From assembly GCA_963716945.1 (NCBI GenBank), contig OY970322.1, forward strand, positions 1,050,001-1,082,000: a stretch of DNA of 32,000 bases. Direction: 5' to 3'. Numbering within the stretch: position 1 is the stretch's first letter; every line of letters starts with the position of its first letter. A program made the translations under genes and the position numbers. This document shows, one piece after another, positions 2,050-22,571 of the stretch. This DNA is from Candidatus Saccharimonadota bacterium. GTDB lineage: Bacteria; Patescibacteriota; Saccharimonadia; Saccharimonadales; UBA4665. The notes below the pieces were generated by a model. That model ran no database searches and was not told the DNA's origin. It was given only the letters and a program-made list of their open reading frames with translations.

Positions 2050-2877
2050 TTACAGACCGAACAGCTTTCCGGCATTAGCGGTAGTGGCGGCCGCCAGCCT
2101 GTCCAAACTCTCGCCGTGCAGATCCGCCAAAAAGCCGGCGATGTCGGCAATCCGTTCAGGCGTGTTAGGGCGGCCGCGGTGGGGCTCGGGTGACAGGAAC
2201 GGCGAGTCGGTTTCCAATAACAGTTTGTCCAGTGGCACCGATTTATAAACCCCCAGCTGGGCCGGGTTTTTGGTAAAGGTAGCGATGCCGTTAACACCGA
2301 TATAAAGCCCTCTCTCCAGGGCTTTGGCCAGGTTGGCCGCCGAATCGGTATAGCTATGCAAAACGCCGCGTACCCCTTCATAGCCGTCAAAAACCGGCCA
2401 AAAATCATCAAACGCCTCGCGCACATGAAAAATCATCGGCAGCCCGTGTTCCAGCGCCAGTTCGATTTGGAATTTCAGGACGGCCGCCTGGTCGGCCTTA
2501 GGCGAGTGGTTATAGTAAAAATCATAGCCGCATTCGCCGATGGCAACGACCTTTGGCTCATCGGCGAGCTTGGCGAAGTCAGCCAGTTTTTGCCGGTCCC
2601 CGGCGTAGTGCCGCGCCTCATGGGGATGGATGCCGATTGACGCCCGGCAATTGTCACGGCCCTTCACGAATTCGGCCGCTAAACGGCTGTCCGCCAGATC
2701 GCAGCCGACGCAAATCAGCCGCGTCACGCCGCTATCCGCGGCCGCCGCGATTATGCTATCGCCGGTCATCCCGGGCGCCTTGGCCCACAGCTCGCGCGTA
2801 ACTTTCTCGCCGCGGCTGCGGCCTGGTACCTGGCCGGCCGATTGGATATGGCAGTGGGTGTCGACCAGTTCGGGCAT
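2050..2877 (-). CDS. tatD: TatD-family metal-dependent hydrolase/DNase
   Basis: 275 aa. Motifs seen: DTHCH metal site, IGECGYDFYY, HVREA, LHSY, ETDSPFL. It starts 3 nt after the metG stop. Confidence 0.9.
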   Translation of the reverse strand: MPELVDTHCHIQSAGQVPGRSRGEKVTRELWAKAPGMTGDSIIAAAADSGVTRLICVGCDLADSRLAAEFVKGRDNCRASIGIHPHEARHYAGDRQKLADFAKLADEPKVVAIGECGYDFYYNHSPKADQAAVLKFQIELALEHGLPMIFHVREAFDDFWPVFDGYEGVRGVLHSYTDSAANLAKALERGLYIGVNGIATFTKNPAQLGVYKSVPLDKLLLETDSPFLSPEPHRGRPNTPERIADIAGFLADLHGESLDRLAAATTANAGKLFGL

Positions 2878-2880
2878 GGC

Positions 2881-4329
2881 CTATTCCTCCTTGGCGGTCT
2901 CGTGCTTGGGGAAAAGCGTGCCTTCGGTGGGCTTAACTTTAGCGCCGTCGAAGACAGCCTTAATCTTGGCAGCCGTATCGGGCATGAACGGCACCAGCAG
3001 CTCGGCGATATTAAGCAACGAGCTGGCCTGGTAGGCCAGGATGTCGCGCAAGTGTTCCTTGTCGTCGGACTTGGCGACAACCCAGGGCTTCTCTTCGTCA
3101 ATATACTGGTTAAGGCCCCGGACTTGCTCCCAGACTTCGTCCAAGGCCCGGTCGAAATGGCACACCGCCAGCGCCGCTTCGTACTGGGCGATATCATGCT
3201 CGGCCGGCGGGATTTCGCCGACGACGCCGTCTTGGTAGTTCACGATCATGGCCACCGTGCGTTGGACGGCATTGCCGAGTTCATTGGCCAGCTCGTTATT
3301 GTAGGCGGCTGCCAGGCGCTGCCAGCTGAAGTCGCCGTCCTCGTAGCTGGGCACGTGGCGCAGGAAATAATAGCGGCAAGCGTCAACGCCGTACTTGCTG
3401 ACGATATCGGCCGGGTGCAGGACGTTGCCCAAGCTTTTGCTCATCTTCTTGCCTTCGACGGTGATGAAACTATGAACGTAGAGCTGCTTGGGCAGCGGCA
3501 GCTTCAGGCTCATCAGCATCGCCGGCCAGACACCGGCGTGGAAACGGATTATGTCCTTGCCGATAACCTGGACCTGGGCGGGCCAGAATTGCTTGAAGTC
3601 ATCGGCTTCCGGGTAACCCAGCACCGTTATATAGTTCATCAGCGCCTCGAACCAGACGTACATTACCTGGGTTTTGTCGCCGGGCACCGGGATACCCCAG
3701 CCGATCTTGTCCTTGGGCCGCGAAATGCTGATGTCATCGAGGCCGCCGCGGAGCAGGCTCAGGATTTCGTTGCGCCGGGTGTCGGGTACGATTTGGAACT
3801 CGCCGCTTTCGATAGCCTTGATGATTGCGGCGGCGTACTTGTCGAGTTTGAAGAAGTAGTTTTCCTCTTCGATCTTTTCGTAAGGCCGGTTATGGGCCGG
3901 GCAGATGCCGTTGTTGGCCTTGACTTCGGTCTCGGTTACGAAAGCTTCGTCGCCGGTGCAGTACCAGCCGATGTATTTGCTCTTGTAAATGTCCTTTTTG
4001 AGCTCTTTCCAAATAAGCTGGGCCCGCTGCTCGTGGCCGGGGTCGGTCGTGCGGATGAAACGGTTGTTGCTGACGTTCAACAGTTCGCCCAATTCGCGGA
4101 AACGCTGGCTGACCCGGTCGGTGAAAACTTTGACATCCAACCCCTGTTCCTCGGCTTTTTCGGCGACCTTGCCGCCGTGCTCGTCGGTGCCGGTACTGAA
4201 AATAACGTCGTCGCCCCGCTGCCGCGCCTGCCGCGCCAGGACGTCGGCGTAGAGCAGCTCCATCGCGAAACCGATATGCGGATCGCCGTTGACATAAGGA
4301 ATAGAGGTCGAGACGTAGTATTTGCTCAT
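2881..4329 (-). CDS. metG: methionyl-tRNA synthetase (short form)
   Basis: 482 aa. Class I aaRS motifs PYVNGDPHIGF (HIGH-type) and KMSKSLGN (KMSKS), with MetRS-like sequence throughout. Confidence 0.95.
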   Translation of the reverse strand: MSKYYVSTSIPYVNGDPHIGFAMELLYADVLARQARQRGDDVIFSTGTDEHGGKVAEKAEEQGLDVKVFTDRVSQRFRELGELLNVSNNRFIRTTDPGHEQRAQLIWKELKKDIYKSKYIGWYCTGDEAFVTETEVKANNGICPAHNRPYEKIEEENYFFKLDKYAAAIIKAIESGEFQIVPDTRRNEILSLLRGGLDDISISRPKDKIGWGIPVPGDKTQVMYVWFEALMNYITVLGYPEADDFKQFWPAQVQVIGKDIIRFHAGVWPAMLMSLKLPLPKQLYVHSFITVEGKKMSKSLGNVLHPADIVSKYGVDACRYYFLRHVPSYEDGDFSWQRLAAAYNNELANELGNAVQRTVAMIVNYQDGVVGEIPPAEHDIAQYEAALAVCHFDRALDEVWEQVRGLNQYIDEEKPWVVAKSDDKEHLRDILAYQASSLLNIAELLVPFMPDTAAKIKAVFDGAKVKPTEGTLFPKHETAKEE

Positions 4330-4378
4330 TAGCTATAGCTTAACTTGTTTCCGGTGGTAAATAAAACGGTCATATCTT

Positions 4379-4936
4379 TTATGCGGGTTTTCGCAGCGCG
4401 ATCCGGGCGACGGCCAGGCCCGTCCGGGCAACGCCTTGGTCGGCGACGCCCTGGTGCCACATTTCCCGGCCGCGGATAAAAGCAGTGTCGCCGGTTTCCA
4501 AGACATAGTGTCCGATGTTGATCACCCGGAAAGAAGACCGGCCTTCCAAGTTGGCGATAGCCGTGACATCCCCAAGCATCGGGCAATCCCTATGTACCCG
4601 GCCCCTGCCGCCGGCCGTCATCCTAAGCAGCTGGGCATTTATCCCCCAGCCGTTTCCCGGTTCCAGGGTAGTGCCCAGCGCGGCCGCGCCATCGCTGAGT
4701 TTCGCGAAAAGCCTGTCGAAGGCAGTCTCCCGGCCGCTCGTAAGCATGCTCTTGAGCGTGGTTATCCGCTCGCCCGCACCGCCGGCGTGGTCCCTGAACG
4801 GCCGGGCGCTGACTTCCGCCAGCACGGCTTGGGCTTCGGCGGCATCGAATAAGCCTTGTACGGCTACGTGGCCTTCGCCGTCAAATTGTTGCCGCGCGTC
4901 TTCGGCCAGGCTTGGGTAAAGATCCAGCCGCGTCAT
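4379..4936 (-). CDS. hypothetical protein; weak HxD...H pattern (VHRD ... WHQG) hints at a cupin/2OG-oxygenase-like fold
   Basis: 185-aa ORF with an ATG start. It is the first gene after the attenuator-like leader and lies 49 nt upstream of metG on the same strand. The family assignment is not secure. Confidence 0.65.
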   Translation of the reverse strand: MTRLDLYPSLAEDARQQFDGEGHVAVQGLFDAAEAQAVLAEVSARPFRDHAGGAGERITTLKSMLTSGRETAFDRLFAKLSDGAAALGTTLEPGNGWGINAQLLRMTAGGRGRVHRDCPMLGDVTAIANLEGRSSFRVINIGHYVLETGDTAFIRGREMWHQGVADQGVARTGLAVARIALRKPA

Positions 4937-4988
4937 TCCGTACTCTTATTTCTCATCATATTTTAATCCTGTAGTAAGCATATTATTT

Positions 4989-5012
4989 AAAAAAACCGGC
5001 CCTAGGCCGGTT
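4989..5012 (-). terminator. intrinsic terminator inside the 5' leader of the 4936 gene/metG operon (attenuator)
   Basis: The minus strand reads AACCGGCC-TAG-GGCCGGTT, an 8-bp GC-rich stem with a 3-nt loop. It runs straight into a run of 7 T. The hairpin sits 52 nt upstream of the ATG at 4936. Confidence 0.65.
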
Positions 5013-5034
5013 AGCTTGCTGATTGGATGGCGTA

Positions 5035-5106
5035 CTAAGAACTCGGCCTAGGGCTAAGCATGGGCATAGGCATCATGCTGGAAGCGGCTGCCGACTTAAT
5101 AAACAT
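5035..5106 (-). CDS. candidate leader peptide MFIKSAAASSMMPMPMLSPRPSS (4 Met codons within 6 codons)
   Basis: A 23-codon ORF (ATG 5106-5104, TAG 5037-5035) begins 6 nt after a -10 hexamer. Codons 17-20 (5054-5044) are perfectly complementary to the terminator core at 5009-4999. Confidence 0.4.
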   Translation of the reverse strand: MFIKSAAASSMMPMPMLSPRPSS

Positions 5107-5112
5107 TCTTTC

Positions 5113-5140
5113 ATACTACACCGATGGCCTAATTTGTCAA
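5113..5140 (-). promoter_or_regulatory. sigma70-like promoter TTGACA-16-TAGTAT
   Basis: On the minus strand TTGACA is at 5140-5135 and TAGTAT at 5118-5113. The promoter starts 3 nt after the trehalase stop codon. Confidence 0.5.
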
Positions 5141-5143
5141 TGC

Positions 5144-6424
5144 CTAAGCCGGGCGGTCGACGTAGTCGCGGCAGAGCCGTTCAAAGATAGCGTTCGTCCA
5201 GCCGAAGCCGGTTTGCGACGGGTAAAGGCCTTTGACGGGCGGTTTTTCGGGCGATACGACATTGTACTTCTCCAAGAAGACATGTTCGGCGTTAAACCAC
5301 TGCAGGTTGGCCTTAAGCCACTTCATCGCAATACGGCGGGCATCCTGGTGGTAACCGTAGCGCTCCAAGCCCTTTATGATCAGGAAGTGCAGCGGCGCCC
5401 AGCCGTTAGGGTAGGCCCATTGGGTCGGCAGGCTGCCAAGGACGAACTGGCCGAGTGGCAGCGCGTCGGTCGTCGACAGGCCGCCCTTATGTTCGAAACG
5501 CCGCAGCGACTTCACCAGGGCGGCCGCCTGCTTTTCGTTGACCATACCCGCCCATAACGGATAGTAAGACGCCAGGCTGCTGGTGCCGCCGCGTTTCTCC
5601 TTGACGTAATTGTAGTCGTAGTACAGCCCGTGCAGCCGGTCCCACATCAGCTCGTCCATGACGGCTTTACGCTGGGCGGCGGCATCATCCCAAAAAGCCG
5701 CATCGCGCTTGGAGCCGAAGATACGGGCCGCCCGGGCAAAATCGGTTTCGTACTTGTACAGCAAGGCGTTCAGGTCGACCGGCAAAAAGTTGAGGGCCCG
5801 GCGGTCGAAGCGCGGCGTCATGTCCCAGCCGCTTTCGGCTTCGGCCAGGTCGTGCAGATAGTTGATGTCATAGTGCCGGCTGAGGCCGCGGTAAACTTGC
5901 CGTTCGTTCGGCTTGTTAACGCCCATCCAGACGGTCTTGTACTCCTCCTCCGCCACTTTCATAACCGTCTTCAGCCAGGCGTCACCCATGTCATATTGCT
6001 GGTAAACGTCGAATATGAAACTGGTCAAAAACGGCGGCTGCGACCGCCCCGTCAGGTAGGTCCGCGAGGCGTTCGGGATAATCTTGAAACGTTTGAACAA
6101 CGATATAAGGTCCTCGAGAATACCGCACACCAGCTCCCGGTGCTCCTCGTCAAGCATACCCTGGATCATGAAATAGCTGTCCCAGTAATACAGTTCGTTG
6201 TAATCGAAGCCGGTCTTGGTGCGGTAGGACGGCACCAGGTAAGGTTTAGGCAAACCGAGCAGGCTTTCGTCGTCCTTGGGGTGGAAACGTTCCACCTTGG
6301 TCCAGTACTTGACGATATAGGCGCGGGCTTCGCGGACATCTTCGGGCGTCAGCTCCTTATCCGGCCGGAAGGACAGTTGGAGGGTTTGCGTGACCAGTTC
6401 TCTGGCTTTTCTCAAGGGCGGCAT
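5144..6424 (-). CDS. trehalase (glycoside hydrolase family 37), cytoplasmic type
   Basis: GH37 motifs: YWDSYF, PNASRTYLTGRSQPPF, ESGWDMTPRF, QWAYPNGWAPL, GFGWTNA. The track ORF extends to a TTG at 6460. The ATG at 6424 is preferred because a TTGACC-17-TAGTCT promoter ends 7 nt upstream of it. Confidence 0.9.
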   Translation of the reverse strand: MPPLRKARELVTQTLQLSFRPDKELTPEDVREARAYIVKYWTKVERFHPKDDESLLGLPKPYLVPSYRTKTGFDYNELYYWDSYFMIQGMLDEEHRELVCGILEDLISLFKRFKIIPNASRTYLTGRSQPPFLTSFIFDVYQQYDMGDAWLKTVMKVAEEEYKTVWMGVNKPNERQVYRGLSRHYDINYLHDLAEAESGWDMTPRFDRRALNFLPVDLNALLYKYETDFARAARIFGSKRDAAFWDDAAAQRKAVMDELMWDRLHGLYYDYNYVKEKRGGTSSLASYYPLWAGMVNEKQAAALVKSLRRFEHKGGLSTTDALPLGQFVLGSLPTQWAYPNGWAPLHFLIIKGLERYGYHQDARRIAMKWLKANLQWFNAEHVFLEKYNVVSPEKPPVKGLYPSQTGFGWTNAIFERLCRDYVDRPA

Positions 6425-6431
6425 ACTCACC

Positions 6432-6460
6432 AGACTACGGGTGTCCGCCCGGCAGGTCAA
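6432..6460 (-). promoter_or_regulatory. promoter TTGACC-17-TAGTCT, 7 nt upstream of the trehalase ATG
   Basis: Minus-strand hexamers at 6460-6455 and 6437-6432, with the ATG at 6424. Confidence 0.45.
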
Positions 6461-11970: not shown

Positions 11971-12369
11971 TGGAGGAGCTGGCGGGTACTGCCCCCGCGT
12001 CCGCCGGTTTATTTAGTTAGTCGTCTACAGGCTTAGTTCGTTTTAGTGTCTTAGGCAACGGGTATCAAAACGAGCAAACAATCCGTTGCCGCAGCCCAAA
12101 GTCTTAGCGCGCTGCCAGGACAGTTCAGCGCGAGCGTCCAGAAAATATGGCGTGCCTTCGCACTATCTGGCGTCGTGTTCGGCACGGTCCGAGGTTTTAG
12201 ACTCGAACTGTTGCGAAGTTCAGCTGTAGCTTAGGAACCGTGAAGTAGCTAGCTAGAGTCTTGAATCCGCGAGCAATTGGGTTTGCAATTACTGGTTTTG
12301 CCTATACGCTGACAAGCGGCCTGCTGATCTAACCGATAAAGTCCAACGTCGAGCTTAAAATTCAGCCCC
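11971..12369 (-). ncRNA. ssrA: tmRNA (transfer-messenger RNA)
   Basis: The 5' end GGGGCTGAATTTTAAGCTCGACG pairs with the 3' end CAGCTCC-T-CCA, giving a 7-bp acceptor stem with the G3:U AlaRS identity pair. The 3' part GGACGCGGG-GGCAGTA-CCCGCCAGCTCCTCCA is nearly collinear with E. coli ssrA GGACGCGGGTTCAACTCCCGCCAGCTCCACCA. A TAA (12199-12197) sits in the loop of the hairpin GTTCGAG/CTCGGAC. A TATAAT lies about 30 nt upstream of the mature 5' end (12411-12406). Confidence 0.85.
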
Positions 12370-15718: not shown

Positions 15719-17920
15719 TTAGATTTTTTCCAGGGGCGCAAAGCTGATATTAAGCTTGCGCGTACCTTTGCCCTTGAAGTAAACGACCGCCGTGTCACCC
15801 TCGATTTCCATCACCGTACCCATCCCGAACACCTGGTGCCGCACTCCATCCCCCTCGTTCAGGTCGGGTACATAGCGAGGTTCACTAGCTGTAGCTGCCT
15901 GAGACATTGTCCCCTGTAGGCCGTGACTTAGGCCGTAAGGGGATGATGTCTCATGGCCCAGCAAGACAGGCGCCTCACGGCCGGAATCCTCAAAACTATT
16001 CGCTGACTGAAACTCCCCGTCAATCTCCGACAAAAATCGCGAAGGCGGATTATGCTGCATCCCGCCATACAGCAGCCGCCCCGAAGCATAGGTCATATAC
16101 AGCTCCTGCCGCGCCCGGGTCATACCGACATAGCACAGCCGCCGCTCCTCTTCCATCTCGTTCTGGTCATACAAAGCCCGCGAATGCGGCAGGATGGACT
16201 CTTCCAGCCCGGCCATGAAGACGACGGGGAATTCCAGGCCCTTGGCGGCGTGCAAAGTCATCAGGGTCACGGCGTCGCCGCTAAAATCGGCGCCGTCCAG
16301 ATCGCTGACCAACGCCACCTCTTCCAGAAAGCCGGACAAACCGGCCTCTTGGTATTCCCGTGCTACGCTGAGCAGCTCTTTGACGTTTTCTTGGCGGGCT
16401 TCGCCCTGCAGGCTGCCATCGTCCAGGTAATGCAGGTAGTCGATCCTCCTCAGCAGCGAGTCGATCAGGCCTGACACGCTGGCGTCTTGGCTGACTTCCC
16501 GGAGCGAATCCAGGATGTCACCCAGCTCGCCGAGCGACTGGCGCGCCTTGGGCGTCAGGTCGCCGCACTCGCCGGCTTGACGCAAAGCCTGCGACAGCGA
16601 CAACCCGCCGGCCTGCTGCCACGAGAAAAAGTTCTGCAAACTTTTGGCGCCGACACCCCTGGCCGGCACATTGACCACGCGCTCGAAACTGACCCGGTCA
16701 TCCGGCTGGAAAACCAAGCGCAAGTAAGCCATGATGTCCTTGATTTCCTTGCGGTCGTAGAAGCGCACACCGCCGACCACCCGGTACGGTACGCCGTAAT
16801 GCACGAAGGCCTCTTCGATCGACCGGCTCTGGGCGTTAGTCCGGTAGAGTACGGCGTAGTCGCCGTAATGCCGGCGGCCGCTGTCGATGCCCAGGCGGAT
16901 ACGGCGGATTATGGCCTCGCCCTCGGCCCGTTCGCTGCCGACCGCCAGCAGCTGGACCGGCAGGCCGTCACCGGAGTCGGTCCAGAGCTTCTTGTCGCTG
17001 CGCTGGGCGTTCTTGGTGATGACGGCATGGGCGGCATCGAGGATGTTCTTGGTGCTGCGGTAGTTTTGTTCGAGCTTGATGATCGTACAGTCTTTATAAT
17101 CTTTTTCGAACTTCAGAATATTGCGGAAGTCGGCACCGCGCCAACTGTAGATGCTTTGCCAATCGTCACCGACGACCGCAATGTTCTTGTGCTCATTGGT
17201 TAACATGTTAACCAATTGGTATTGGGCGGCATTAGTGTCCTGGTACTCGTCAATCATGATGTATTTGAACTGCTGCTGCCATTTCTTGCGGATTTCGGGC
17301 CGGGCTTTGAGCATCTGGACCGTCCGGTTAATCAGGTCGTCAAAGTCCAGTGCCGATGCCTCGCGCAGCGACCTCTCATAAGAGGGGTAAACCTTGGCGG
17401 CAGCTTGCTGCGCCGGCGTAGATGCCGAAGCGGCGTACTCGGCCGGATCCAGCATCTCGTTCTTGGCACTGCTAATCAGGCCGCTGAGCAAACGGGCCGG
17501 GAAGGCCTTCTCGTCGATCATCAGCTCTTTGCTGGCCCGCTTGACGGCAGCTTGCCGGTCGGATTCGTCGAAGATTACGAAACTGCGCGGAATACCGACC
17601 GCTTCCCCGTCCTGCCTGAGCAGCCGCACGCAAATGCCGTGAAAAGTGCCCATATAAGGCATGAAGCCGCGATTGTCGGCGTTCTCGCCCAGCAGGCCGG
17701 CCACCCGGCTGCGCATCTCTTTGGCCGCCTTGTTGGTAAAAGTCACGGCCAAGATATTAAACGGCGTGGCCTTGTGGGTGGCAATCAGGTAGGCGATACG
17801 GTGGGTCAGGGTTTTGGTCTTGCCGGAGCCGGCGCCGGCTTGAATCAGCAGCGGCCCTTCAGTCGTTTCCACCGCCCGGCGCTGTTCCGGATTTAAGCCC
17901 TCAAAGAGTCCTTCTAACAC
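15719..17920 (-). CDS. pcrA: ATP-dependent DNA helicase PcrA/UvrD (SF1)
   Basis: Walker A AGAGSGKT, DEYQDT, YRS, TLHAAKGLEF, YVGMTRA. GTG start, with TAGAAT 6 nt upstream. Confidence 0.92.
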   Translation of the reverse strand: MLEGLFEGLNPEQRRAVETTEGPLLIQAGAGSGKTKTLTHRIAYLIATHKATPFNILAVTFTNKAAKEMRSRVAGLLGENADNRGFMPYMGTFHGICVRLLRQDGEAVGIPRSFVIFDESDRQAAVKRASKELMIDEKAFPARLLSGLISSAKNEMLDPAEYAASASTPAQQAAAKVYPSYERSLREASALDFDDLINRTVQMLKARPEIRKKWQQQFKYIMIDEYQDTNAAQYQLVNMLTNEHKNIAVVGDDWQSIYSWRGADFRNILKFEKDYKDCTIIKLEQNYRSTKNILDAAHAVITKNAQRSDKKLWTDSGDGLPVQLLAVGSERAEGEAIIRRIRLGIDSGRRHYGDYAVLYRTNAQSRSIEEAFVHYGVPYRVVGGVRFYDRKEIKDIMAYLRLVFQPDDRVSFERVVNVPARGVGAKSLQNFFSWQQAGGLSLSQALRQAGECGDLTPKARQSLGELGDILDSLREVSQDASVSGLIDSLLRRIDYLHYLDDGSLQGEARQENVKELLSVAREYQEAGLSGFLEEVALVSDLDGADFSGDAVTLMTLHAAKGLEFPVVFMAGLEESILPHSRALYDQNEMEEERRLCYVGMTRARQELYMTYASGRLLYGGMQHNPPSRFLSEIDGEFQSANSFEDSGREAPVLLGHETSSPYGLSHGLQGTMSQAATASEPRYVPDLNEGDGVRHQVFGMGTVMEIEGDTAVVYFKGKGTRKLNISFAPLEKI

Positions 17921-22496: not shown

Positions 22497-22571
22497 TGGT
22501 GATCCCGCGGAGAATCGAACTCCGATTGCCAGGATGAAAACCTGGTGTCCTAACCATTAGACGACGGGACC
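22497..22571 (-). tRNA. tRNA-Glu (anticodon UUC), CCA encoded
   Basis: The minus strand reads GGTCCCGTCGTCTAATGGTTAGGACACCAGGTTTTCATCCTGGCAATCGGAGTTCGATTCTCCGCGGGATCACCA. It folds into a cloverleaf with a 7-bp acceptor stem, anticodon loop TTTTCAT and T-loop TTCGATT. Confidence 0.9.

Follow-up and report, generated by a model that had tools for sequence, protein, structure and literature searches.

A Conserved Leader with a Met-Codon-Rich Mini-ORF and a Terminator/Antiterminator Pair: A Putative Transcription Attenuator of metG Operons in Saccharibacteria

Results

The Leader of the metG Operon

The DNA analyzed here is a stretch of 32,000 nucleotides (nt) from a Saccharibacterium (contig OY970322.1, positions 1,050,001 to 1,082,000); this whole stretch is called the window, and positions are counted from its first letter. 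On the minus strand, between a trehalase gene and the operon that encodes methionyl-tRNA synthetase (MetRS, gene metG), it contains a leader that combines a promoter, a short open reading frame (ORF) rich in Met codons, and an intrinsic terminator whose hairpin is complementary to part of that ORF. We propose below that this leader is probably a transcription attenuator that responds to methionine.

The leader begins with a −35 hexamer, TTGACA (5135–5140), followed after 16 nt by a −10 hexamer, TAGTAT (5113–5118), which ends 6 nt before an ATG at 5106. This ATG opens an ORF of 23 codons plus stop (MFIKSAAASSMMPMPMLSPRPSS*, 5035–5106, with the stop codon TAG at 5037–5035), predicted to be leaderless, in which Met is found at codons 11, 12, 14, and 16, packed into the cluster ATG ATG CCT ATG CCC ATG (codons 11–16, 5059–5076). 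Within codons 18–21, and ending 6 nt ahead of the stop codon, lies the 5′ strand of an antiterminator, here called box 2 (GCCCUAGGCCG, 5044–5054). Its sequence GCCCTAGGCCG (5054–5044) is the perfect complement of box 3, CGGCCTAGGGC (5009–4999), the 3′ strand of the antiterminator, which covers the terminator's 5′ arm, its loop, and the first part of its 3′ arm. The terminator itself (4989–5012) has a GC-rich stem of 8 bp, a UAG loop, and a tract of seven U (AACCGGCC-TAG-GGCCGGTT followed by seven T) and ends 52 nt ahead of the ATG (4936) of the first gene of the operon. Counted from the first nucleotide of the ORF, the Met codons start at 31, 34, 40, and 46, box 2 occupies 53–63, the stop codon 70–72, and the terminator stem 95–113. 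Scans for consensus promoters and for terminators pick precisely these promoter and terminator sites. An initial annotation of this DNA had described the promoter, the ORF with its stop and its Met codons, the 11-nt complementarity, and the terminator, and all of them are present as described.

Such a combination is not readily obtained at random. When the upstream 94 nt were shuffled, an 11-nt complement to the hairpin arose in 5 of 20,000 dinucleotide shuffles; at least four ATG within six consecutive codons occur a single time on both strands of the 32-kb window; and CCTAGG has two sites in the window, which are the two boxes. Coincidence is therefore a poor explanation for the elements of the leader.

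Distribution of the Leader

Relatives of the leader were found by three independent routes. The route through the first gene of the operon, which we call gene X, gave only three relatives in a word-indexed database, and the two contigs that carry these include the upstream region. An exact-sequence search with the gene X protein of the window retrieved no contig. In both, the leader is near-identical over ~110 nt, whereas the gene X proteins are only 73–80% identical, and the −35 and −10 hexamers are kept although the spacer between them differs in sequence. The route through MetRS, using BLAST and a covariance model (R1) on 80 MetRS loci, added six more genomes (L003, L012, L015, L016, L030, and L065); in the covariance model search of 83 sources, the element was present in only 9. 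Upstream of ~70 other metG loci, we found neither the leader nor any diverged element consisting of a Met cluster plus a terminator, five loci in which the MetRS motif was not located being left out of the search for diverged leaders.

The third route was a scan of metagenomes with the pattern GCCCTNGGCNGNNTTN{20,45}CCGGCNNNGGGCCGG, which fixes boxes 2 and 3/4 only and sets no condition on the start, the Met cluster, the stop, or the terminator loop. The 23 loci retrieved comprise 14 with a U tract and 9 chance matches, the latter in GC-rich coding DNA and without a U tract. The Met cluster and the ORF are present in 14 of the 14 matches with a U tract; R1, which was built before the pattern scan, aligned with all 14 at full length and with 67–122 bits, and scored none of the 9 chance matches. 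An additional copy (L106) was reached via a distant relative of gene X. That three independent routes lead to the same module indicates a conserved family.

Altogether, the module of ~115 nt is found in the window and in 23 further loci, all of them from Saccharibacteria or metagenomes; these amount to 22 distinct full-length copies, including that of the window, plus one copy cut at its 5′ end. Comparing the related leader regions, along the lines that the initial annotation had suggested for metG operons, shows the promoter, the frame and start of the ORF, the Met cluster, the position of the stop, the switch, and the link to methionine-related genes to be kept in the 22 copies. The best relatives of the MetRS (70–91% identity) belong nearly all to metagenome-assembled genomes (MAGs) of Saccharibacteria/Saccharimonadales, and the organism being a Saccharibacterium, that is, a member of the Candidate Phyla Radiation (CPR)/Patescibacteria, the comparison with the T-box and S-box of Firmicutes drawn at first does not apply. 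Three loci with MetRS proteins 71–91% identical to that of the window (L003, DASRLG010000001.1; L035; L047) are nevertheless labelled as Dormiibacterota or Verrucomicrobiia, which is probably due to mis-binning of MAGs or to mislabelling.

The Mini-ORF and Its Met Codons

All 22 full copies have a leader ORF of 20–24 codons behind a sigma-70 promoter, usually with the start codon 6–7 nt after the −10 box. In a blind test, the best pair of −35 and −10 boxes was picked ignoring the ATG, and the first ATG or GTG downstream was then taken as the start; in 14 of the 14 copies with a strong promoter (score of at least 9), this codon lies at +6 or +7 after the −10 box and begins an open frame that includes the Met cluster. 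The stretch from the start to the Met cluster comes in five lengths (18–30 nt), always in frame, and the N-terminal sequences are unrelated between lineages (MFIKSAAASS, MIFLGSQN, MIKRLSSFR, MQISKYQE, MYTVRKTALA, and others). This N-terminal part contains no stop in frame 0, partly by construction, versus 12 and 14 in the other frames. The stop codon of the ORF, TAG or TAA, starts 4–10 nt after box 2, mostly 7, and the distance from the stop to the terminator is 23–31 nt in all copies. In-frame insertions and deletions (+3, −6) among close relatives were rejected as independent evidence of coding, since they match ATG and CCYATG repeat units, so that slippage could account for them.

No Shine-Dalgarno sequence was found before the leader ORF. 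Given this, and with the start codon at the predicted transcription start, the ORF would have to be translated as a leaderless mRNA. Three loci without the attenuator are informative here, L019 (3348–3387), L110, and L111 (1174–1201), which have the trehalase gene, a TTGACA promoter at its stop, gene X, and metG. The ATG of gene X lies 5–8 nt after the −10 box in L019; for L110 and L111, this distance is given as 5–8 nt or as a 26-nt gap. These attenuator-free loci show that the leader is a module that was inserted or lost, and because the same promoter would drive gene X in them, they make leaderless expression credible: Where the leader is absent, gene X itself appears to be expressed leaderless.

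Elsewhere in the window, long ORFs at 17920 (minus strand), 12507 (plus strand), 13564 (minus strand), and 9155 (minus strand) likewise have a −10-like hexamer 5–8 nt before the start and no Shine-Dalgarno sequence, and many other genes of the window carry an AGGAG-like Shine-Dalgarno sequence. Judging by these start regions, leaderless mRNAs may be common in this genome.

Within a span of 5–7 codons, every copy has 3–5 internal Met codons that follow the motif M-M-(M)-P-M-(x-M), where x is P, S, C, or L and the Pro is Ala in L089; single Met positions are sometimes ATA, ATT, GTG, GTA, or ACA. The distance from the first nucleotide of the last ATG to box 2 is exactly 7 nt in every copy. Apart from the Met codons, the peptide shows no conservation, and the C-terminal PRP, PGP, or PGL tracks the RNA pairing, not the identity of the peptide. 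The clustering of Met codons, first noted in the window, is hence a conserved property, seen in 14 of 14 terminator-bearing matches of a scan whose pattern left it open.

Mutually Exclusive Helices

The minimum free energy (MFE) fold of 5106–4985, a calculation that had been recommended in the initial annotation, has −40 kcal/mol (z = −2.98) and contains the 11-bp antiterminator, with the 11-mer of the ORF in its antiterminator pairing. Pairing and covariation were counted in an alignment of 21 sequences (A5). Here, 99.6% of the cells of the 11-bp antiterminator are paired, compared with 13–64% in controls slid by 1–3 columns. A single antiterminator pair is compensatory (A-U in 15 sequences, G-C in 4, and G-U in 2), with the 3′ partner in the middle of the terminator loop, a position not constrained by the terminator as such. 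The consensus structure computed by RNAalifold consists of the antiterminator only, extended to 14 pairs, as the sole consensus helix; in the same analysis of the aligned copies, no conserved helix was found in the 5′ half of the leader, the first 30–45 nt of which are conserved neither in sequence nor in predicted structure.

Six G-C pairs of the terminator stem are invariant in the 21 sequences, and the terminator hairpin alone has −11 to −16.5 kcal/mol across the copies. The antiterminator is the MFE structure in 19 of 21 copies, 2–11 kcal/mol better than a fold in which the terminator is forced. The exclusivity of terminator and antiterminator, as claimed at the outset from the complementarity in the window, thus finds support in the 99.6% pairing and in the one compensatory pair.

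Another helix of 5 bp can be drawn between GCCUA inside AUG-CCU-AUG (candidate region 1, 5067–5071 in the window) and UAGGC of box 2, and would be a possible, weak 1:2 helix acting as an anti-antiterminator or in pausing. It is present in 8 of 21 MFE folds of the 5′ part; L087 and L100 have a matching change (GCCCA:UGGGC), and L002 and L095 are mismatched.

A search of the leader against 4227 Rfam families gave no relevant match, either at the gathering score or at E ≤ 10. One sub-threshold match to the Pseudomonas small RNA (sRNA) P9 on the plus strand (4955–5014; 21.4 bits vs. a gathering score of 43) was rejected as the palindromic terminator read on the opposite strand.

Genes behind and ahead of the Leader

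In the window, the leader is followed on the minus strand by gene X (4379–4936; 185 amino acids, no Pfam match), metG (2881–4329; 482 amino acids, Pfam tRNA-synt_1g, E = 5.6e-100), a gene for a tatD-family hydrolase in the same operon (2050–2877; Pfam TatD_DNase, E = 1.9e-64), and, abutting tatD, a gene for a cysteine desulfurase-like class-V aminotransferase (910–2049; Pfam Aminotran_5, E = 2.5e-58). The last three had been named in the initial annotation, and Pfam bears this out; the first gene after the leader had been left without a name there and is the 185-aa ORF of gene X. A promoter scan found no sigma-70-like promoter in the gap between the terminator and gene X (4989–4937). An ORF of 496 codons runs antisense across the whole of metG (2842–4332, plus strand) and is most likely spurious, an open frame on the strand facing a GC-rich gene.

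Among the copies, metG operons lie behind the leader at 11–12 loci, with metG after one intervening gene (the window, L003/L102, L012, L015, L016, L030, L065, L091, L095, L101, and L106), and in most of these the intervening first gene is gene X. The first gene encodes a homocysteine S-methyltransferase in L030 (Pfam E = 4e-55), a protein with the C-terminal domain of S-adenosylmethionine (SAM) hydroxide adenosyltransferases (SAM_HAT_C) in L095, and a pyridoxal phosphate enzyme of Cys/Met metabolism in L104 (E = 2e-72). Methionine is the product of homocysteine methyltransferase and is set free from SAM by SAM hydroxide adenosyltransferases. The first gene encodes a protein without assigned function in L012, L083, L086, L089, L091, L093, L101, and L103; a link of the L103 and L083 proteins to the SAM_HAT-like protein of L095 was not relied on, as it is a weak local match (E = 0.001) from a single comparison. 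In L092, a contig of 1.5 kb, the ORF at 720–1055 is an N-terminal fragment of a homocysteine S-methyltransferase that stops after 111 codons of a domain of ~283 residues, and this short ORF could reflect a frameshift, a pseudogene, or an assembly error.

Three small families without a match in Pfam or NCBIfam also stand directly behind the leader, and because of this placement they are candidates for methionine-related functions: One has 146–149 amino acids (L089, 479–919, with a thymidylate-synthase-like gene next to it; L093, 3579–4028), the second has 89–119 amino acids and precedes metG (L091, 3937–4296; L101, 5240–5509), and the third is a protein of 160 amino acids before metG (L012, 3495–3977).

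The gene upstream of the leader varies. In the window it is the trehalase gene (5144–6460, minus strand, the ORF ending at 5144), as in many loci; L030 and L101 have a tRNA-Val(CAC) instead, and other ORFs are found elsewhere. This indicates that the module travels with methionine-related genes and is not the terminator of the trehalase gene. In L030 and L101, two unrelated contigs, the leader promoter lies ~10–40 nt past the end of the tRNA-Val(CAC) on the same strand (tRNA at 2778–2854 and 4962–5038, respectively), so that this tRNA gene is, next to trehalase, a second upstream neighbor that recurs.

Gene X belongs to a small family, with 31 detectable relatives among 1.84 billion (1.84e9) representative proteins, in which H115, D117, H161, and R171 are invariant or nearly so, giving an HxD...H...R pattern. 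The AlphaFold2 model reached a mean predicted local distance difference test (pLDDT) of 96.4 with an alignment of 29 sequences and of 36 with 3 sequences. The top Foldseek match is the Pseudomonas putida PPHD, including its complex with EF-Tu (E = 1.5e-10, TM score 0.67), followed by further matches to a Burkholderia pseudomallei 2-oxoglutarate (2OG) oxygenase, PHD2, ALKBH7, and a viral collagen prolyl hydroxylase; with the sequence profile, the best match in the PDB is the amino-acid halogenase BesD (E = 0.0015). On the strength of the model, gene X would encode a small Fe(II)/2OG oxygenase-like protein with a prolyl-hydroxylase-like fold. Its position beside metG under a leader that would sense translation is suggestive.

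As for structural RNAs in the rest of the window, a tmRNA is matched at full length by Rfam (11971–12369, minus strand, 67.6 bits), whereas ARAGORN reports none there; the only gene reported by ARAGORN in the window is a tRNA-Glu(UUC) (22497–22571, minus strand).

Discussion

A Ribosome-Mediated Attenuator

What is observed in silico is the conservation of the parts, their geometry, the fact that the two helices exclude each other, and the link to methionine genes. We propose that the leader acts as a transcription attenuator of the gene X-metG-tatD operon, mediated by the ribosome and responsive to methionine, and we put the probability of this at roughly 0.8. Ribosome-mediated attenuation had been the reading of the initial annotation, and it is supported by the conservation of every component across the 22 full copies and by the link to methionine genes.

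The transcription start, the translation of the ORF, the stalling, the termination, and the direction of the response are what we infer from the sequences. Transcription would begin at or a few nt from the ATG at 5106, and the leader ORF would be translated as a leaderless mRNA. With Met-tRNA(Met) plentiful, the ribosome would pass the Met cluster, reach the stop, and cover box 2 (5054–5044); box 3 would then pair with the 3′ arm of the terminator, and RNA polymerase would stop at the U tract. With charged tRNA(Met) scarce, be it through low methionine or through too little MetRS, the ribosome would stall in the Met cluster upstream of box 2, which would remain free to pair with box 3 (11–14 bp), so that no terminator would form and the operon would be transcribed. 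The footprint of a ribosome extends ~12–15 nt from the P site in both directions. A ribosome that has the stop codon in its A site would thus cover most or all of box 2, its front edge being >10 nt short of the terminator stem, and when stalled on the first Met codons it would end 5–10 nt before box 2 and leave it free.

It should be noted that a number of points weigh against this proposal. The whole of it hinges on leaderless initiation, a start without a Shine-Dalgarno sequence that is a prediction for Saccharibacteria, and a limitation of methionine would hit initiation itself too. With the antiterminator as the MFE structure in 19 of 21 copies, termination needs tight timing between ribosome and polymerase, and the classical 1:2 helix is just 5 bp long and inconsistent between copies. 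Only one pair covaries, the boxes being near-invariant, and for 13 of the 21 sequences in the alignment, most of the box positions were already fixed by the pattern used to retrieve them. Met has a single codon, so that the conservation of AUG cannot separate a role as codon from a role as RNA motif; the CCU between the Met codons is also conserved at the nucleotide level, and the two best-conserved Met codons are those nearest to box 2, part of which could be hidden by a ribosome stalled at the last of them, according to whether its footprint extends to +11 or to +15. Finally, several of the downstream genes are functionally unassigned, and gene X has no evident link to methionine.

The stability of the antiterminator also has a bearing on how the attenuator would behave by default. 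As the antiterminator is the ground state in 19 of 21 copies, the default in the absence of a ribosome is probably read-through, unlike in trp; an untranslated leader, according to the folding models, probably reads through instead of super-attenuating. A tentative extension, for which the odds are rather below even, is that the leader is a default-ON sensor that covers the initiator as well as the elongator tRNA charged by MetRS, either of which, when uncharged, would lead to read-through. A leaderless start needs fMet-tRNA(fMet) and a 70S ribosome, so that with the antiterminator as ground state failed initiation and stalling would both give read-through. Termination might then occur only once a ribosome has both started translation and gone through all of the Met codons, the inverse of the super-attenuation of trp, which we regard as conceivable and somewhat doubtful. 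If true, one cis element would report on both MetRS products, and, with the element standing ahead of several genes of methionine supply, there would be a small "Met ribulon" in these genome-reduced CPR bacteria, implying tight coupling of transcription and translation.

Other Explanations

The peptide could itself be the sensor, in that M-M-(M)-P-M-x-M would act as an arrest peptide and detect methionine, SAM, or another ligand in the ribosomal tunnel, as TnaC does for tryptophan; the position of the ribosome and termination would then depend on the ligand, not on the charging of tRNA(Met). Motifs containing Pro slow peptide-bond formation, the motif including its Pro is kept in nearly all copies, and the blind promoter-first test supports translation of the ORF, but conservation is poor beyond the Met codons, the N-terminus is unrelated between lineages, and a Met count varying from 3 to 5 with substitutions by Ile, Val, and Thr is typical of runs of regulatory codons, not of arrest peptides. 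We consider this explanation unlikely, and even less probable that the ORF is incidental and that an oligomeric RNA-binding protein of the TRAP or HutP type reads periodic triplets overlapping box 2. Triplets with a period of ~6 nt are indeed present in 5076–5035 (AUG..AUG..AUG..UAG..UAG..GAG..UAG), and TRAP is described as binding 11 (G/U)AG repeats and thereby blocking an antiterminator (PMC3064811). However, the periodicity is accounted for by the Met codons, the UAG and GAG triplets in particular by the pairing of box 2 and by the stop codon, and the start at +6/+7, the frame kept through a variable N-terminus, and the fixed position of the stop would be left unexplained. Nor does a conserved regulator gene accompany the leader in the loci compared, the next gene being variously for the 2OG oxygenase-like protein, a methyltransferase, a SAM_HAT-like protein, or a protein without assigned function; gene X was rejected as a TRAP- or HutP-like regulator, since other loci have unrelated genes in its place and its modeled fold is that of a 2OG oxygenase.

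With its own promoter and terminator, the leader could also be a stand-alone small gene or an sRNA without a role in cis, the operon having a promoter of its own in the 52-nt gap; attenuator RNAs and leader peptides can also work in trans, as described for rnTrpL/peTrpL. This seems improbable to a slightly greater degree again, as the module invariably stands immediately ahead of methionine-related genes and in their orientation despite differing upstream neighbors, the pairing of 11–14 bp between ORF and terminator would be purposeless in a simple gene, the gap yielded no promoter in our scan, and the peptide is unconserved outside the Met cluster. A riboswitch for SAM, methionine, or a related ligand, with box 2, box 3, and the terminator as its expression platform, would account for a conserved leader of ~115 nt with terminator and antiterminator before methionine genes, and S-box and other SAM riboswitches do sit ahead of methionine genes in other phyla (PMC2965389). 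We rate it as very improbable, below the stand-alone gene, because no Rfam family matches even at E ≤ 10, no helix besides the antiterminator is conserved, the conserved RNA that is left is too little for an aptamer, and the signature of the ORF would have no explanation. Finally, the hairpin lies 130 nt downstream of the trehalase stop and on the same strand, so that it could be the terminator of that gene, with the ORF and the complementarity arising by chance. This is hardly credible in view of the chance statistics, of the module being kept in 23 other loci, some of them behind a tRNA or an unrelated ORF, and of the trehalase genes that lack such a terminator in L019, L110, and L111.

Significance for Saccharibacteria

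Saccharibacteria are epibionts with genomes of ~1 Mb, and to our knowledge almost nothing is known of their gene regulation. A switch read by the ribosome costs ~115 nt and no regulator gene, which would suit a minimal genome. An attenuator of this kind would imply functional leaderless translation and a close coupling of ribosome and polymerase in the CPR. The genes behind the leader would in addition outline how Saccharibacteria secure methionine, and flag proteins without assigned function as candidates for methionine salvage. As the element is short and sharply defined, it is directly testable in reporter systems.

Comparison with Known Systems

Leaderless sensory ORFs have a counterpart in the short ORFs (sORFs) with poly-Cys of mycobacteria (Cys "ribulon," bioRxiv 10.1101/834739), where likewise a leaderless mRNA opens with an ORF rich in a single amino acid, several operons of the same pathway each have a copy, and stalling relieves an inhibitory RNA structure. 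Their output, however, is translational, through an RNA duplex that sequesters the next gene's ribosome-binding site, whereas a U-tract terminator is found here, and the start of the next gene lies 52 nt beyond the terminator and outside the conserved pairing. Genes for aminoacyl-tRNA synthetases (aaRS) behind leader peptides with cognate codons have also been predicted outside the Proteobacteria by comparative genomics, namely hisS/hisZ in Bacillus with a histidine leader peptide upstream (PMC2965389) and the trpS/leuS attenuators of Streptomyces (PMC1262725). Our leader resembles these in design and differs from them in amino acid, in phylum, and in having no sequence similarity to them; for the methionine operons of Actinobacteria, PMC1262725 expressly reports the lack of any conserved upstream RNA element.

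The Met T-box and the S-box (SAM-I) of Firmicutes share with the leader a premature termination ahead of metG or methionine genes, and the T-box also senses the charging of tRNA. Unlike them, the leader has ~115 nt and contains no specifier loop, T-box sequence, or aptamer, the sensor being presumably a translating ribosome; in Rfam, no T-box or SAM riboswitch model matches it at the gathering score or at E ≤ 10. Methionine control is otherwise credited to S-box/SAM riboswitches, Met T-boxes, or protein repressors. The initial annotation knew of no Met-leader attenuator for MetRS, and this still holds for Rfam (4227 families) and for the open-access literature, in which we found no methionine leader peptide, none for metG, and no attenuator of Saccharibacteria, although subscription journals may differ.

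The closest relatives in terms of mechanism are trpL-trpEDCBA and pheM-pheST of the Proteobacteria, the latter being a case of aaRS genes under leader-peptide control. They share with the leader a short ORF in which codons for the cognate amino acid are clustered, an intrinsic terminator that cannot form together with the antiterminator, the masking of the antiterminator strand by a ribosome at the stop codon, as we propose it here, and the regulation of genes of the cognate pathway or of an aaRS. The terminators of amino-acid attenuators lie >20 nt from the stop codon of the leader, with termination maximal beyond ~27 nt in an Escherichia coli test system (PMC4824070); the distance of 23–31 nt in our copies fits the >20-nt rule. 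In contrast to trpL and pheM-pheST, the leader would be specific for methionine, is predicted to be leaderless instead of led by a Shine-Dalgarno sequence, and belongs to the Patescibacteria/CPR; its 1:2 hairpin has at best 5 bp, and the antiterminator is the thermodynamic ground state. As far as the sequences tell, what would be new with respect to classical attenuation is therefore the amino acid, methionine, the phylum, and the leaderless form of the sensory ORF.

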